Source of the DNA: a virus
DNA length: 28,569 nucleotides
Virus genome (UHGV): UHGV-0000020
Reading direction: 5' to 3' (one strand)
Part shown: positions 18,884 through 23,681 of the stretch, piece after piece
Layout of the letters: each line of letters begins with the position of its first letter
Position numbering within the stretch: position 1 is the first letter of the stretch
Program-made: the position numbers and the translations under genes
Notes under the pieces: model-generated
Databases searched by the model: none
Told to the model about the DNA's origin: nothing
What the model saw: the letters and a program-made list of their open reading frames with translations, nothing else

Positions 18884-19920
18884 TGAGCAAGAAACGTAAT
18901 AAGCGCCAGCCGCAACCAGAGACCCGCAAACATACCGCCGAGACCGCTCAGAGCATGGAAGCATTCACCTTTGGCGAGCCGACGCCGGTGCTCGATCGCC
19001 GCGACATTCTCGATTATGTCGAATGTATCGATAACGGCCAGTGGTATGAGCCGCCGGTGAGTTTCTCCGGGCTCGCGAAAAGTATGCGCGCCGCCGTACA
19101 CCACAGCTCACCGATTTACGTGAAGCGTAATATTCTGGTATCGACGTACACGCCGCACCCGCTGTTATCCCGTCAGGACTTCAGCCGGTTCGCGCTCGAT
19201 TATCTGGTATTTGGTAACGCCTTTCTCGAAGAGCGTCGAAGCGTCACCGGCAAGCCGCTGAAGTTCGATACCTCCCCGGCCAAATATACCCGACGCGGGG
19301 TGGATGATGATATTTACTGGTATATCCAGAGCTACACGCAGCCGCACCAGTACGCGCCCGGTTCCGTCTTCCATTTGCTTGAGCCGGATATTAATCAGGA
19401 GCTCTACGGTATGCCGGAATACCTGAGCGCGCTCAATTCAGCCTGGCTGAATGAATCCGCGACCCTGTTTCGCCGGAAGTATTACCAGAACGGGGCGCAC
19501 GCCGGTTACATCATGTATGTGACTGACGCCGCGCAGAGCAGCACCGACGTCGAGGCACTACGCAAGGCGATGCGCGACTCGAAAGGGCTCGGCAACTTTA
19601 AGAATCTGTTTTTCTATGCACCAAACGGAAAAGCAGACGGGATTAAAATTGTGCCCCTGAGCGAAGTCGCCACGAAGGATGATTTTTTCAACATCAAAAA
19701 AGTCAGCGCCGCTGACCTGCTGGACGCCCACCGCATCCCGTTCCAGTTGATGGGCGGCAAGCCTGAAAACGTCGGGTCAGTGGGTGACGTTGAGAAGGTG
19801 GCAAAGGTCTTTGTCCGCAATGAGTTAATCCCGCTTCAGGCGCGATTCATGGAGCTGAACGAGTGGGCGGGTCAGGAGATTATCCGCTTCGAAAAATACA
19901 CACTCGAAGACAGCGAATAA
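18883..19920 (+). CDS. Q: Portal protein Q
   Basis: ATG at 18883 in TAATG overlap with P; 345 aa MSKKRNKRQPQPETRKHTAETAQSMEAFTFGEPTPV...; position next to cos. Confidence 0.9.
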   Translation: MSKKRNKRQPQPETRKHTAETAQSMEAFTFGEPTPVLDRRDILDYVECIDNGQWYEPPVSFSGLAKSMRAAVHHSSPIYVKRNILVSTYTPHPLLSRQDFSRFALDYLVFGNAFLEERRSVTGKPLKFDTSPAKYTRRGVDDDIYWYIQSYTQPHQYAPGSVFHLLEPDINQELYGMPEYLSALNSAWLNESATLFRRKYYQNGAHAGYIMYVTDAAQSSTDVEALRKAMRDSKGLGNFKNLFFYAPNGKADGIKIVPLSEVATKDDFFNIKKVSAADLLDAHRIPFQLMGGKPENVGSVGDVEKVAKVFVRNELIPLQARFMELNEWAGQEIIRFEKYTLEDSE

Positions 19921-19930
19921 CCCGCCATAA

Positions 19931-19953
19931 GCCGCCGATACAGGCGGCTTTTT
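19931..19953 (+). terminator. Rho-independent terminator after Q
   Basis: GCCGCC-GATACA-GGCGGC hairpin followed by TTTTT, 11 nt after the Q stop. Confidence 0.8.
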
Positions 19954-20095
19954 CGTACCCGCCACCATACGCCCTCAGAGCGACGACACGCCGTCGCCAA
20001 CAACGCCCACCCAATGACTCACTCAACACCATTACAACGCGACAGCGAGCTGCTGAGGCGCGAGAAAATAAATTAAATACCTGCTCCAGCGCGCA

Positions 20096-20114
20096 ATGCT
20101 ATCCCCGCCTCGCC
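20096..20114. other. cos: cos-like site (cohesive-end region)
   Basis: Minus-strand sequence GGCGAGGCGGGGATAGCA closely resembles the P2 19-nt cohesive end as I recall it (GGCGAGGCGGGGAAAGCAC); located just beyond Q as in P2. Confidence 0.7.
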
Positions 20115-20271
20115 TGCCCGCTTTATGGGTCGGTTTTAATGCAGTTGCATGAACACGTCGGAGCCGCGCCAGCACTGGCGGCGCTCACACATGACAGGGG
20201 AGGAAAACGCATGCAATTCGATGCAATAGCGCATGCAGCGCTAAAAAACGGGGAAAAAGCGGAAAAATGAC

Positions 20272-20299
20272 ATAAAAAAACCGGCATACAGGGTGCCGG
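20272..20299 (-). terminator. Rho-independent (bidirectional) terminator closing the minus-strand accessory operon
   Basis: Hairpin CCGGCA-TACAGGG-TGCCGG (20281-20299) flanked by an A-run on the plus strand, giving hairpin plus U-tract on the minus strand directly after the 33-aa peptide ORF. Confidence 0.75.
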
Positions 20300-20323
20300 T
20301 TTGTGCAGGTATTAAGGGGGGGC

Positions 20324-20425
20324 TTACTGGCCGCGCAATGCTCCAATAATGCTGTTCAGGCAACAACTGGCAATAATCATCAGAAAAATTGTCGTCCACG
20401 GATTTTCATAAACAAGCGATAGCAT
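20324..20425 (-). CDS. Predicted 33-aa single-TM peptide (hypothetical)
   Basis: ATG at 20425 preceded by AGAGGA overlapping the stop of the upstream ORF; MLSLVYENPWTTIFLMIIASCCLNSIIGALRGQ-TAA; 20-residue hydrophobic core; followed by a terminator. Below the size cutoff of the ORF track. Confidence 0.4.
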   Translation of the reverse strand: MLSLVYENPWTTIFLMIIASCCLNSIIGALRGQ

Positions 20426-20434
20426 TTTAATCCT

Positions 20435-20638
20435 CTATTTCATCATTCGAATGTGGTTAAGCAGTTCTTTGACGACCGCACCAAGTTCCTCACCGTTTGT
20501 CTGATGCACCAGGCTATCAGTAAATTTATTAACTTCCCGTGAACTCAGGTCGTGATTGGCTGCGAGGCAAATCATATTCTGCGCCCACTTTTGAAGCCAT
20601 TTGTTATCAACAACATCGGAAGGGACAAGACGCAACAT
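20435..20638 (-). CDS. Hypothetical 67-aa protein
   Basis: First ATG at 20638 (MLRLVPSDVVDNKWLQKWAQNMICLAANHDLSSREVNKFTDSLVHQTNGEELGAVVKELLNHIRMMK) with GAGGT 8 nt upstream; the track ORF start at 20647 is GTG. No family recognised. Confidence 0.5.
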   Translation of the reverse strand: MLRLVPSDVVDNKWLQKWAQNMICLAANHDLSSREVNKFTDSLVHQTNGEELGAVVKELLNHIRMMK

Positions 20639-20848
20639 AGCGCACACCTCGATTAGTCATTTTCAGTCGTATTGAAATTGTTTAAGCAAAGGCATGATAT
20701 GCGTGGAGTGGCAGACGACCAATCGATGAGCGGCGTGCTGTATATGGCACAAAGGAAAACGGCTAACGCCTCGCGGGGCTCGTTGTTCAACCCCGCCAGC
20801 CCTGAAATCAAGTTTCAGTACCGGCGGCGTTTGCGCGCTATTCAGATA

Positions 20849-21079
20849 TTAACGCCAGCTTTCGTCTTCCCAGACTTCCTGAAGGATACTATCCAGCGCT
20901 TCCCTGTCTGAATCTTTGTCGACCCCCATCAACTCGACGCCAGTCATTGAGCCTTTTTTTACCGTGACGCGCGTCGACGGAAAAACTGACTGAATTCTTC
21001 GGGTCAATTCACTTTGAAATGCATCAATGACTGGCTGCCCGATTTTCTGGTCTTTGTCTAACGTGATATTGATATTCAT
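20849..21079 (-). CDS. DinI-family protein
   Basis: 76 aa MNINITLDKDQKIGQPVIDAFQSELTRRIQSVFP...ALDSILQEVWEDESWR aligns along its length with E. coli DinI (ELSRRIQ, FP, ILQETWE motifs). Confidence 0.85.
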   Translation of the reverse strand: MNINITLDKDQKIGQPVIDAFQSELTRRIQSVFPSTRVTVKKGSMTGVELMGVDKDSDREALDSILQEVWEDESWR

Positions 21080-21082
21080 AAC

Positions 21083-21265
21083 CTACTCAGCCTCATAAAA
21101 GAAATCTTCTTCGGTCTCGTTATTTTCGCTATTTGCAAGATCGGCAATGAGAGTGAGCGCGAGCTTTAAGTCTGCTGGTTTGCAGTTCGCTATCAGAGAT
21201 ACCTCGGCTATGAATTGCACACAAGCCCACTTTTGCTGCGTTCGGCTGAAATGTTCCCCAACCAT
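21083..21265 (-). CDS. Hypothetical acidic 60-aa protein, first ORF of LexA-controlled operon
   Basis: ATG at 21265 with GGGAGGG Shine-Dalgarno immediately downstream of the LexA box; ends ...ENNETEEDFFYEAE-TAG; in frame with the DinI-like ORF, separated only by TAG plus one codon. The longer track ORF starts at a GTG upstream of the LexA box. Confidence 0.55.
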   Translation of the reverse strand: MVGEHFSRTQQKWACVQFIAEVSLIANCKPADLKLALTLIADLANSENNETEEDFFYEAE

Positions 21266-21285
21266 GAAATCCCTCCCAATAGGGT

Positions 21286-21305
21286 TACTGTATAAATATA
21301 CAGTA
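21286..21305. promoter_or_regulatory. LexA (SOS) box
   Basis: TACTGTATAAATATACAGTA, a 19/20 match to the TACTGTATATATATACAGTA consensus (CTGT-N8-ACAG), 20 nt upstream of the 60-aa ORF start and next to a TTGCCA -35-like hexamer. Confidence 0.8.
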
Positions 21306-21383
21306 GCACGTATTGGCAAACATGGGGAAGAAAAAAAATACACGCCATCAATGTATCTATCTGATATCGATAAACATTAAATG

Positions 21384-23681
21384 TTAACTCCTTGTTTGTG
21401 GCGGTGTTAACTGCTCTATACGACTCATTATTTGTTCGGCTTTTAATCGTGCAGCCTCACTTTTTGCAGCCTGAGAAGGTGCTGACGGGAACACTTCCCC
21501 GGAAGAAGATCCCCGGCACCATTTGCCGTTTATACAGCTTCGCCCACCGGCCATAAGGTGCAGAGCTTCCCCACGACTGATGGTGATGCCAGTCGTCAGA
21601 TGTATTTCGTCGATAGTTTTTTCTATCGCTGGGTTTTGCTCAGGCGTTCCGTGAACGAAGGCCGGCCTTTTTGGTGGTTTTGGCTTCCTGATTCGTTTTG
21701 CCAATTCGCGTTTTTCTCGTCGGCTTAGTGGTTTTGTTAAATCGAGTTCCGGTGGCTCGCTTTCGCTCCCCGTACAGTTATTGACAGAACTCCGAGAGGG
21801 CGCAGGAGCGCCCTTAACGTCAACGGCCAAATCAACGGCACACTTCGGCACAATTTTCCACTGTGTGAGCCGGGTTAAAATCGGAGTGTCAGCGCCGACG
21901 GCAGAGTCGTACACGCCACGAATGCAGACAGTTTCCTCGCCATACTGATTAAACTCTGCGCGCGGCTCATACAGCGTGCGCACCTGCAAATCGTCACGAC
22001 GGACAAACGGGCCACCCTGTGCATTAACATAGCCAGCCCAATCACCGGCGTCGGCGGCATCATGGACGGCGGCAAACTCAACGCTCAGACCATGTGCGGT
22101 CTCGGTGTCAGCGAGACGACGCAACTCACGGTAGACCGTCACCGGCGCGCCGCCGATAAACTGGAATTGACGGATGTGCCAGCGTGCCGCCCATGCTGAA
22201 ACGGCGGGGGCTGTCTCTTTCAGCAGCTCACCGCTTTCGTCATCGGTTTCGCCATCGAGAGCATAGCCGTCGATATTTTTTGAAATGTATTTAGCAACAT
22301 AGCCGGTAGCGCTGCCCTTTTCAGGGTCAATGGCCTCGGCATGAAAGCGCGCTTTTTTGGCTTTGTCGCTTCTCAGCTCGTGGCGGTCTTCCTCCCACGC
22401 ATAATCACGGATGATGAGGCGGACGCGCTCGACGTCTTCCGGCAACATGAACATAAGCATGTGCCAGTGCGGCGTGCCGTCGTGATGGGGCTCGGCTACA
22501 CGGATGCCGAAAATGCGGATTTCTTCCCGATGCAGCTTGGCGCGAATGCGCGCCCAAAGGCCGGTTAGATAGCTCTGCGTGTCCGAAGGGCTGGCACCGT
22601 TCCATTTGCTGTTACGGTATCCCGCTTTGGTGGTGGCGTGATATTTGGACGGTGCAGTCAGGGTGTAAAACTCCCCGACATATCCGAGCTCATTGCAGAT
22701 ATTTTCAAACCCACGAATGCGGGTCATCAGCTCGCAGCGACGTATCGCAGGGTTAGCGACCGAACCGTCGTATTTTTCAATCAGGCTGATGCGGTTGCCG
22801 TCTTCGTCTTCGAGATCCAGCCCCTTGAGAAATTCGCGCGTGCGGCGCTTCTGCTCACGCCAGTCGGTCACGCAGTTCTTACTCGCGTATGCGTGTCTTT
22901 TTTTGCTGACATTTCCGACTGCGATTTGCAAATGTTCGCGCCATGCAGCCGCAATGCGACGCAGGCGACCACGCCACCACGCATCGTTAAACATGCGAGC
23001 GATAGCCGGGGCGATTTCATCCTCACCGACATATTTCTTTGCCACCCGCTCCCAATGCGGGGGGGTAACGTTGAATTGCAGGGAAATAAAACCAGCCCGC
23101 ATGTACCAGGTGTACAGCGTTTTAAGCTCGCTAAATCCGCTGTCATCAATGTCAGCCAGTTCAGCGCGAATAAAATTTGCGATATCAGCGGCCAGCAGGT
23201 CAATATCGGCGCGCGACATGTCTGGGAGGCGGTTATATCTGGCGATCATATTGACCATGCGTGATGCCAGATATTGCAAAAGCTCAGTATCAAAATGACC
23301 ACCGAAAACAGCGGCGGATACATTGCTGTTGATACCTGCACACTCGTATTTTTTTGCGACCAGTTCAAGACGCGGCAATGTCTTTTTGCAGAAGCTGATT
23401 AAAAAAGCATTGGCTCGTTGACTGCCTTGATTTTGCTCCAGCACCGCAGCGGTGCGATAAACATCAAAACGCACGCACTCAGGCTGGAGAGAAAGCATCT
23501 TTTTCGCATGCAGCAAAGCCGCGAACATACGGTCGCGGCGATACTGTTGCTCATAGGTAAGATATGGGCTGGCTATTGCCGACCGTGGAGCGTTCCACGG
23601 GTAAGCATAGTTAACGCTTACCCGCATAGCTCGCCCATTTGCCGGCGCTGTATACTTAACATCACATAGCCGGGAGCCCAT
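21384..23681 (-). CDS. A: Replication initiation protein A (rolling-circle nickase)
   Basis: 765 aa; ...FGIRVAEPHHDGTPHWHMLMFM... and ...GYVAKYISKNIDGYALDGE... are hallmark motifs of P2 gpA. Confidence 0.92.
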   Translation of the reverse strand: MGSRLCDVKYTAPANGRAMRVSVNYAYPWNAPRSAIASPYLTYEQQYRRDRMFAALLHAKKMLSLQPECVRFDVYRTAAVLEQNQGSQRANAFLISFCKKTLPRLELVAKKYECAGINSNVSAAVFGGHFDTELLQYLASRMVNMIARYNRLPDMSRADIDLLAADIANFIRAELADIDDSGFSELKTLYTWYMRAGFISLQFNVTPPHWERVAKKYVGEDEIAPAIARMFNDAWWRGRLRRIAAAWREHLQIAVGNVSKKRHAYASKNCVTDWREQKRRTREFLKGLDLEDEDGNRISLIEKYDGSVANPAIRRCELMTRIRGFENICNELGYVGEFYTLTAPSKYHATTKAGYRNSKWNGASPSDTQSYLTGLWARIRAKLHREEIRIFGIRVAEPHHDGTPHWHMLMFMLPEDVERVRLIIRDYAWEEDRHELRSDKAKKARFHAEAIDPEKGSATGYVAKYISKNIDGYALDGETDDESGELLKETAPAVSAWAARWHIRQFQFIGGAPVTVYRELRRLADTETAHGLSVEFAAVHDAADAGDWAGYVNAQGGPFVRRDDLQVRTLYEPRAEFNQYGEETVCIRGVYDSAVGADTPILTRLTQWKIVPKCAVDLAVDVKGAPAPSRSSVNNCTGSESEPPELDLTKPLSRREKRELAKRIRKPKPPKRPAFVHGTPEQNPAIEKTIDEIHLTTGITISRGEALHLMAGGRSCINGKWCRGSSSGEVFPSAPSQAAKSEAARLKAEQIMSRIEQLTPPQTRS

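Follow-up and report, generated by a model that had tools for sequence, protein, structure and literature searches.

A 67-residue protein gene and a predicted 33-residue membrane peptide gene beside cos in a phage 186-like prophage

We analyzed a 28,569-nucleotide (nt) stretch of the UHGV virus genome UHGV-0000020, hereafter the window, which is a 186-like (Eganvirus-type) prophage. On its minus strand, between a DinI-like gene and the cos site, lie two small open reading frames (ORFs), one for a 67-amino-acid (aa) protein, p67, and the other for a 33-aa peptide with a single hydrophobic segment. Both ORFs are very probably real genes that do not form an obligate toxin/antitoxin pair. We tentatively regard them as a dispensable, SOS-expressed accessory module of P2/186-like phages (Peduoviridae), whose peptide would act in the inner membrane, although we stop just short of calling this reading probable.

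All the elements listed in a preliminary description of this locus were found again (Table 1): the DinI-like gene, a gap of 210 nt (20639-20848) with a conserved hairpin inside it, p67, the peptide gene and a terminator. The p67 gene starts at an ATG at 20638, with GAGGTG 6 nt upstream of it, and stops at a TAG at 20437-20435. A GTG at 20647 is an alternative start, which would give 70 aa; the homologues are annotated at 67 aa. The junction between the two genes reads TAGAGGATTAAAATG, where the AGAGGA Shine-Dalgarno sequence of the peptide overlaps the TAG of p67 and the distance from stop to start is 9 nt. The strong terminator lies 20 nt beyond the peptide stop, its stem (AAACCGGCACCCTGTATGCCGGTTT) being followed by TTTTATG (20302-20278), and cos lies another 164 nt away. 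The portal gene converges on cos from the opposite side and ends at 19920.

Table 1. Features of the locus in the window, listed from the p67-peptide pair outwards.
Feature	Coordinates	Strand	Remarks
67-aa ORF (p67)	20435..20638	-	PHROG 2454 (function unknown); soluble, predicted three-helix bundle
33-aa peptide gene, predicted single-pass membrane product	20324..20425	-	sequence MLSLVYENPWTTIFLMIIASCCLNSIIGALRGQ
Structured RNA element, ~72 nt	20761..20832	-	with 15-bp hairpin at 20789-20831; nhmmer, covariation
Intrinsic terminator	20272..20302	-	homologue of 186 t95b; 9-bp stem and T-run; conserved in all loci
DinI-like gene, 76 aa	20849..21079	-	Pfam PF06183 DinI, E=2e-18; equivalent to the DinI-like C-terminal part of 186 Tum
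60-aa ORF	21083..21265	-	PHROG 1993 (function unknown); first operon cistron; equivalent in position to the N-terminal part of 186 Tum
Promoter homologous to p95, with LexA operator	21286..21330	-	operator TACTGTATATTTATACAGTA at 21305-21286; alignment to annotated 186 site
cos cohesive end	20096..20114	-	GGCGAGGCGGGGATAGCAT; 17/19 identical to annotated P2 cosR

Two samples of related loci were compared. The first was collected with a degenerate DNA pattern for the ten codons of YENPWTT[IV]FL, which matched 42 IMG/VR contigs and two species-representative genomes. Together with GenBank phages and contigs found via p67, these matches gave 58 peptide-anchored loci, in all of which an intact peptide core was required. 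The second, independent sample comprised 60 loci ascertained through p67 alone. The peptide ORF is conserved in related prophages, as it is exactly 33 codons long in each of the 58 peptide-anchored loci and intact in 39 of the 60 independent ones. The peptide-anchored set holds 36 unique nucleotide versions and 25 protein variants, and its variable sites are distributed over the three codon positions as 16/7/27 (14/7/19 outside the ten codons fixed by the search pattern), whereas three windows of flanking non-coding DNA exhibit no codon periodicity (~12/14/13). The ratio of nonsynonymous to synonymous divergence (pN/pS) was 0.38 outside the search pattern and 0.36 in the p67-ascertained sample. 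The five remaining reading frames over the ORF contain stops in every unique version. No indel columns are present in the alignment of the ORF, in contrast to the neighbouring spacers, and the Shine-Dalgarno sequence is retained in every arrangement, which amounts to four differing upstream contexts. Most substitutions are swaps among I, V, L and M. Outside the pattern, C22, S25, I27 and R31 do not vary at all, and N24 and G28 hardly vary. Judged by these patterns, the peptide is a real gene under purifying selection.

The peptide family is widespread. An exact-sequence look-up returned at least 91 distinct peptide sequences, all unnamed, in three 90% clusters. Several variants occur on at least 1000 contigs each, and the contigs of Salmonella, Klebsiella and E. 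coli that carry a family member number in the thousands. An exhaustive HMMER search of 1.84 billion representative proteins recovered the peptide's own family and two frameshifted-looking variants only. The gene is usually missed by the Prokaryotic Genome Annotation Pipeline (PGAP), which calls a spurious ORF on the opposite strand, over the terminator and cos flank, instead. Such calls were seen in E. coli E66 (locus L059, 4163-4463), in phage SW9 (L004, 2105-2275, named 'aI protein') and in a further locus (L002, 35-205). Several disrupted peptide ORFs (L076, L088 and L104) are frameshifted within a T-run at codons 13-15 (ACG ACG GTT TTT CTG), which could reflect slippage-prone phase variation or homopolymer sequencing error. 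A promoter-like site on the sense strand inside the peptide ORF (20373-20346) was dropped, since it was not flagged in two further loci that were scanned.

In agreement with the preliminary description, the product is a predicted single-pass membrane protein. Its hydrophobic core, WTTIFLMIIASCCLNSIIGAL, comprises 21 residues with a mean Kyte-Doolittle value of 1.9-2.2, preceded on the N-terminal side by a YENPW aromatic cap and followed by a single arginine near the C-terminus. We infer that this core inserts in the membrane. The small or polar conserved residues A19/S20, C22, N24/S25 and G28/A29 are aligned along one side of the helix, and this face would be suited to helix-helix packing.

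With regard to p67, the earlier statement that it belongs to no recognized family holds for Pfam, NCBIfam and PADLOC, but the protein is a member of PHROG 2454 (E=3.1e-29, residues 7-67 on positions 4-64 of the 64-position profile). Its homologues form 66 clusters, all annotated as hypothetical and none with a Pfam domain. They were found in Salmonella, Escherichia, Klebsiella, Citrobacter, Enterobacter, Serratia, Edwardsiella, Cronobacter and other genera of the Enterobacterales. Two subtypes can be distinguished, the 67-aa type of the window and a 63-64-aa type, with a mutual identity of ~50%; the motifs DLSSRE and LLNHIR are invariant among the homologues. Over the last 50 codons pN/pS is 0.26, and by the same kind of measure p67 is a genuine gene under purifying selection. 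The predicted model of this ~7.5-kDa protein is a three-helix bundle with a mean predicted local distance difference test (pLDDT) score of 70.6. Fold searches gave no informative structural neighbours, and no DNA-binding or antitoxin fold was recognized among them. Likewise, a sequence profile search of the PDB yielded nothing below E=0.1, and no consistent weak match emerged from a Pfam scan of all 31 p67 homologues.

The two genes are often found together, although neither is tied to the other. Within the peptide-anchored loci, p67 lies directly upstream of the peptide in 46 of 58, and an intact peptide occurs without p67 in the other 12. These are of three kinds: SEN1-type phages, in which the RNA hairpin element is joined directly to the Shine-Dalgarno sequence of the peptide; one locus in which the p67 leader is joined to the ribosome-binding site of the peptide; and eight P2-lineage loci with a decayed 3' remnant of p67 only. 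Among the 60 p67-anchored loci, 39 carry the canonical intact peptide and one more carries it with an alternative start, while 12 have homologous DNA disrupted by frameshift, loss of the ATG, internal stop or truncation (five of them from one lineage) and eight have no peptide-like DNA. GenBank phages with the peptide number 15 records and those with p67 number 13, the 13 being nested inside the 15. An apparent pattern of a constant peptide with an optional p67 was an artefact of the sample that demanded an intact peptide core, as the p67-anchored sample showed both genes to be lost independently. p67 and the peptide are thus kept or lost independently of one another, and an obligate toxin/antidote relation is therefore unlikely in either direction.

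The preliminary description had put forward a two-gene toxin/immunity or abortive-infection module. In such a module the peptide would be a membrane toxin with p67 as its antidote, or the reverse. The idea draws on the arrangement of the two small genes, which are adjacent and co-oriented, tightly spaced, and linked by a ribosome-binding site lying over the upstream stop. They also sit within the gpA-cos hotspot where defence systems cluster, and they occur together in most loci of either sample (46/58 and ~40/60). Partner co-occurrence nevertheless fails in both directions, given that phage SEN1 is among the 12 carriers of an intact peptide without p67 and that p67 accompanies a frameshifted, truncated or missing peptide in ~20 of 60 loci. 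Since each gene is found alone, neither partner is needed by the other for the viability of the carrier. Searches of Pfam, NCBIfam, PADLOC (PADLOC-DB 2.0, E up to 1) and the PDB gave no significant match for either product, and the fold comparisons with toxin and antitoxin families were negative or non-specific. Furthermore, the module remains constant amid the turnover of its neighbours, which is the opposite of the behaviour of defence cassettes in this hotspot. On balance, we regard a toxin/immunity or abortive-infection module as very unlikely. A full-text literature search for motifs of the peptide and of p67 retrieved no paper, and in two papers on the P2 hotspot the passages that match the terms for these genes make no mention of either.

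The translational coupling suggested earlier also has to be qualified. The ribosome-binding site does lie over the upstream stop at 9 nt from stop to start in the window type, where the two genes are in frame, but in the commoner type, represented by phage Midge, they are 16 nt apart. Coupling is possible and not required; because the spacing differs between the subtypes, it is not a conserved requirement. A fusion of p67 and the peptide by read-through of the stop (103 aa, tail-anchored, in frame at 20425-20440) was rejected for the same reason, the frame in the window being probably incidental.

The resemblance of the peptide to small membrane toxins raises a different question, namely whether it could act as a stand-alone SOS toxin that depolarizes the membrane upon LexA cleavage, p67 being irrelevant. 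TisB/IstR-1 and DinQ/AgrB of E. coli are LexA-controlled small membrane toxins belonging to the type I toxin-antitoxin systems, and a type I toxin is expected to come with an antisense RNA and with a leader that hides its ribosome-binding site. The window peptide is a small hydrophobic membrane peptide of this kind (33 aa, 21-residue core, one helix) downstream of a LexA-controlled promoter, and its occasional frameshifted copies could be inactivated toxins of the TisB, DinQ or Hok kind. Neither of the other two features was found. A consensus scan of the window, which a weak promoter could escape, revealed no antisense promoter-like site facing the peptide, and the 20-nt spacer between its stop and the terminator is not conserved. 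The region 20272-20500 folds like shuffled sequence (z=0.04), and has no fold that would hide the ribosome-binding site; pairing in the centroid structure is confined to the terminator and to short local hairpins, and the Shine-Dalgarno sequence is open. When the peptide was compared with Pfam at E up to 1, no toxin family appeared and the sole match was DUF883_C (E=0.24); the HMMER search, as described above, gave only its own family. A collapse of the proton-motive force early in induction would moreover be expected to cost the phage its burst. The profile and structure searches thus lend no support to membership in a membrane-toxin family, and a stand-alone toxin appears distinctly unlikely. 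A holin or antiholin role does not fit the position of the gene either, as it lies outside the lysis cassette with the DinI-like gene and the terminator as neighbours.

The surroundings of the pair correspond to the SOS operon of phage 186. An identical metagenome contig of 44 kb has the gene order characteristic of phage 186, with CI, CP76, Fil, gpA, the 60-aa gene (also annotated as a gene there), DinI, p67, the 33-aa gene, portal and terminase. The LexA operator TACTGTATATTTATACAGTA and the stretch adjoining it upstream are near-identical to the annotated p95 region of 186, with most columns invariant. When the p95/LexA region was aligned with those of 186, Midge and SEN1, CAATACGTGCTACTGTAT and the operator half-site TATACAGTA were invariant in all four, and the TTGCCA-type hexamer before CAATACGTGCTACTGTAT and the centre of the operator were slightly variable. 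According to its annotation, p95 of phage 186 drives tum, the partial terminator t95a, orf97 and t95b, which adjoins cos. The window likewise has a p95-type promoter with a LexA operator upstream of its tum/dinI gene and a terminator before cos that is homologous to t95b. Its Tum is split into the 60-aa ORF and the separate 76-aa DinI-like ORF, as it is in Midge and SEN1. The p67-peptide pair occupies the position of 186 orf97, at the distal, cos-proximal end of the operon. Since a consensus scan of the stretch from the DinI-like gene to p67 predicted no terminator of the hairpin-plus-T-run type, the pair would form the distal part of the LexA-controlled transcript from p95. The suggestion that the locus is the one where P2 carries old and tin was right as far as the gpA-cos hotspot is concerned; the phage, however, is 186-like and not P2 proper, and the locus corresponds to the distal end of the SOS operon of 186. 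The alternative of a lysogeny-expressed small membrane protein holds for the membrane protein, whereas its expression in the lysogen is doubtful, because the only recognizable upstream promoter is the LexA-operated p95 homologue, which would be silent in the lysogen and active in SOS.

The position of the module relative to cos is fixed. The gpA-gpQ interval of P2-type phages is an accessory and defence hotspot, described by Rousset et al. (2022; PMC9122126). Of the 52 loci that extend as far as the portal gene, ~47 have the peptide stop 503-520 nt away from the end of the portal-gene match. The distance is the same in both lineages, whose A proteins are 85-100% (186) or ~37% (P2) identical to that of the window. 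Upstream of the module the cargo varies, from DinI alone in the window to an orf97 homologue in Salmonella prophages, a Fic-like gene in FSL SP-004, and an XRE regulator with a reverse transcriptase (RT), a retron RT, in Klebsiella phage ST147-VIM1phi7.1. As the pair stays beside cos while orf97-like, Fic-like and retron RT genes are exchanged upstream of it, it behaves as a semi-conserved part of the backbone, situated where the hotspot borders on cos, and not as swappable, fast-turnover cargo.

Some relatives differ in the spacing on the portal side. In a few of them the portal gene is 0.8-2.6 kb from the peptide and not ~0.5 kb (L059 4621-6200, L018, L037, L043, L050 and L051), and in E. 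coli E66 (L059) the interval from cos to the portal gene holds a P-loop NTPase gene and a hypothetical gene. The far side of cos may therefore offer a second insertion point. In those P2-lineage loci where little of p67 is left, a promoter-like TTGATA-16-TACATT site with an upstream TG lies over the peptide start (L015, 5571-5600; L030, 709-738). It is located on the opposite strand, reads into the leftward cargo and is reminiscent of the P2 old-tin promoter, so that in these loci the peptide and the cargo may share a divergent control region. A new TATAAT driving the peptide in the P2-lineage remnants was rejected, given that the flagged site is on the opposite strand, directed toward the leftward cargo, and ambiguous.

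Many relatives carry a divergent 143-aa gene, p143 (PHROG 2266), which is absent from the window and whose product has a glycine-rich hydrophobic C-terminal tail. Its start codon overlaps the start of p67 head-to-head in every locus with a full-length p143 (526-957 in L001, 1363-1794 in L005 and 1860-2291 in L006). Many further loci retain just the ~19 first codons of p143 beside an intact p67, which suggests that the retained segment carries a promoter or leader for p67 and the peptide. p67 could accordingly be viewed as a regulator or antidote of p143 that was orphaned here by deletion of p143, with the peptide as an independent neighbour. The fact that p143 was lost far more often than p67 is the pattern of an effector with an orphaned partner. 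Nevertheless, purifying selection on p67 (pN/pS 0.26) extends to lineages that lack p143, the window-type p67 has a conserved leader of its own with no trace of p143, no DNA-binding fold was recognized in p67, and p67 without peptide-type DNA was not found among the GenBank phages. We consider a p143 partner unlikely, if less so than the toxin readings above.

The gap between the DinI-like gene and p67 contains a conserved RNA element. nhmmer detected this ~72-nt element in 45 of 61 loci, where it invariably has the orientation of the operon and marks the upstream border of the module. In 27 distinct copies the 15-bp hairpin shows 95% pairing and compensatory changes in 8 of the 15 pairs, values that none of 500 shuffles reached. 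Many of the pairs are G-U on the sense strand only, and the structure therefore resides on the transcript. Directly after the hairpin comes the nearly invariant GGTTGAACAAC. BLAST located the element in 67 phage records, among them 186, PSP3, Wphi and Erwinia phage EtG; annotation of it is very rare. In phage 186 there is one copy, between orf97 and t95b, and in SEN1/SW9-type phages two copies flank a 69-aa gene, an arrangement that looks like a cassette boundary. An Rfam scan of 19900-21450 yielded no family; the only sub-threshold match, RsmY, with 15 bits against a gathering score of 57, was rejected. The element is distinct from the 186 terminator t95a. The hairpin may be an attenuator, an mRNA-stabilizing hairpin or a homology anchor for cassette exchange.

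These observations can be combined into the following proposal. DNA damage would lead to LexA cleavage and open the p95-like promoter, and the transcript would run through the 60-aa gene, the DinI-like gene, the hairpin element, p67 and the peptide to stop at the t95b-like terminator before cos. p67 would be made as a soluble protein, and translation of the peptide would start from a Shine-Dalgarno sequence of its own, which overlaps the p67 stop. Inserted in the inner membrane as one helix, the peptide could then contact itself or a membrane protein of the host or phage, helix to helix. The likeliest effect, by analogy, would be an altered envelope function at induction, such as the exclusion of incoming phage DNA. 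This guess is made because Orf97 of phage 186, which is membrane-anchored and encoded at the same place in the operon, is recorded as follows: 'expression from plasmid blocks 186 infection'. p67 might serve as a facultative partner in the cytoplasm, or as a regulator carried over from a larger p143-p67 cassette. A bolder version, which we regard as improbable, would make the peptide a LexA-switched prophage membrane effector that closes the envelope to superinfection or transiently alters membrane energetics at induction, a protein-only counterpart of TisB/DinQ without antisense RNA. Here p67 would be a facultative chaperone or timer, and the RNA hairpin an attenuator or cassette boundary setting the supply of the SOS transcript.

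Several observations weigh against an SOS-expressed module acting in the membrane. The conserved hairpin element could attenuate read-through from the DinI-like gene, and a weak promoter candidate of the pair's own, TTGGTC-17-TATCAT, is conserved in three arrangements; SOS control of the pair is therefore putative. The module also occurs in P2-lineage phages without the Tum/DinI operon, and SOS-driven expression is therefore not universal. The peptide is broken or lost in about a third of the p67-bearing loci (~20/60), and both it and p67 are absent from phages 186 and P2, so that any benefit of the peptide must be conditional. Confidence in a specific function of the module is low, as it is read from position and composition. 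Finally, the synonymous divergence of the peptide is unusually low (pS 0.23 versus 0.53 for p67), and the entire cos flank, from the peptide to cos, is 75-98% conserved, which implies that part of the conservation of the ORF is hitch-hiking with the packaging region.

It is mainly these last two observations that keep a further alternative alive, in which the peptide ORF is non-functional as a protein and is kept by the packaging or insulation needs of the cos flank, p67 being the leftover of a larger cassette. The absence of the ORF from 186 and P2, its disruption or loss in about a third of the p67 loci and the fact that PGAP usually leaves it uncalled are also what would be expected of such a stretch. 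On the other hand, passive conservation would hardly account for variation that is codon-periodic in the ORF beside flat flanks, for a pN/pS of 0.36-0.38, for the lack of indel columns next to spacers that have them, for conservative I/V/L/M changes around invariant polar positions, or for a Shine-Dalgarno sequence kept in four upstream contexts over an ORF whose other five frames all contain stops. Hitch-hiking as the whole explanation is thus very unlikely, on a par with the toxin/immunity module. A dispensable, SOS-expressed module with a membrane-acting peptide remains our tentative preference.

Few unannotated genes of P2/186-like prophages are carried as widely as that of the peptide. 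For surveys of this hotspot that look for anti-phage systems, the pair should be treated as a backbone module and not as a toxin/antitoxin, which avoids mis-scoring it as a defence candidate. If the peptide does act in the membrane during SOS, it would be a phage-side addition to the small class of LexA-controlled membrane peptides and would provide a function for the distal part of the 186 SOS operon.

Among known systems, the SOS operon of phage 186 is the closest, with its near-identical promoter and LexA operator, its DinI-like module, its homologous terminal terminator and its position adjacent to cos. The window differs from it in that Tum is unsplit in 186 and that the t95a hairpin stands where the window has a different structured element. 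186 Orf97 is likewise a membrane-anchored (through an N-terminal hydrophobic helix), non-essential, distal product of the operon; unlike the peptide and p67, it is 243 aa long and of unrelated sequence, and 186 lacks both of them. Because Salmonella relatives carry orf97 and the pair together, the pair is not a simple replacement of orf97. TisB/IstR-1 and DinQ/AgrB share with the window a small (27-33 aa), hydrophobic single-helix peptide downstream of a LexA box. The window peptide, in contrast, has no antisense or overlapping small RNA gene, no leader hiding the ribosome-binding site and no sequence similarity to them, and it is encoded by the final cistron of a polycistronic phage operon, where its Shine-Dalgarno sequence is good and exposed. 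P2 old/tin and the other defence cargo of the gpA-gpQ interval are non-essential accessory genes in the same interval between A and cos/portal. However, old and tin are large, have a promoter near cos that reads leftward, and are exchanged among phages, whereas the window pair is tiny, reads rightward, persists beside many cargos and has no PADLOC match. Finally, AcrZ, MgtR, MgrB and CydX are small single-pass membrane proteins that modulate larger membrane proteins. The peptide resembles this class in general architecture only, namely in its size, its one helix and the small/polar face of that helix; there is no sequence relationship, and the window peptide is phage-encoded. The peptide gene family is thus undescribed but of a familiar kind.

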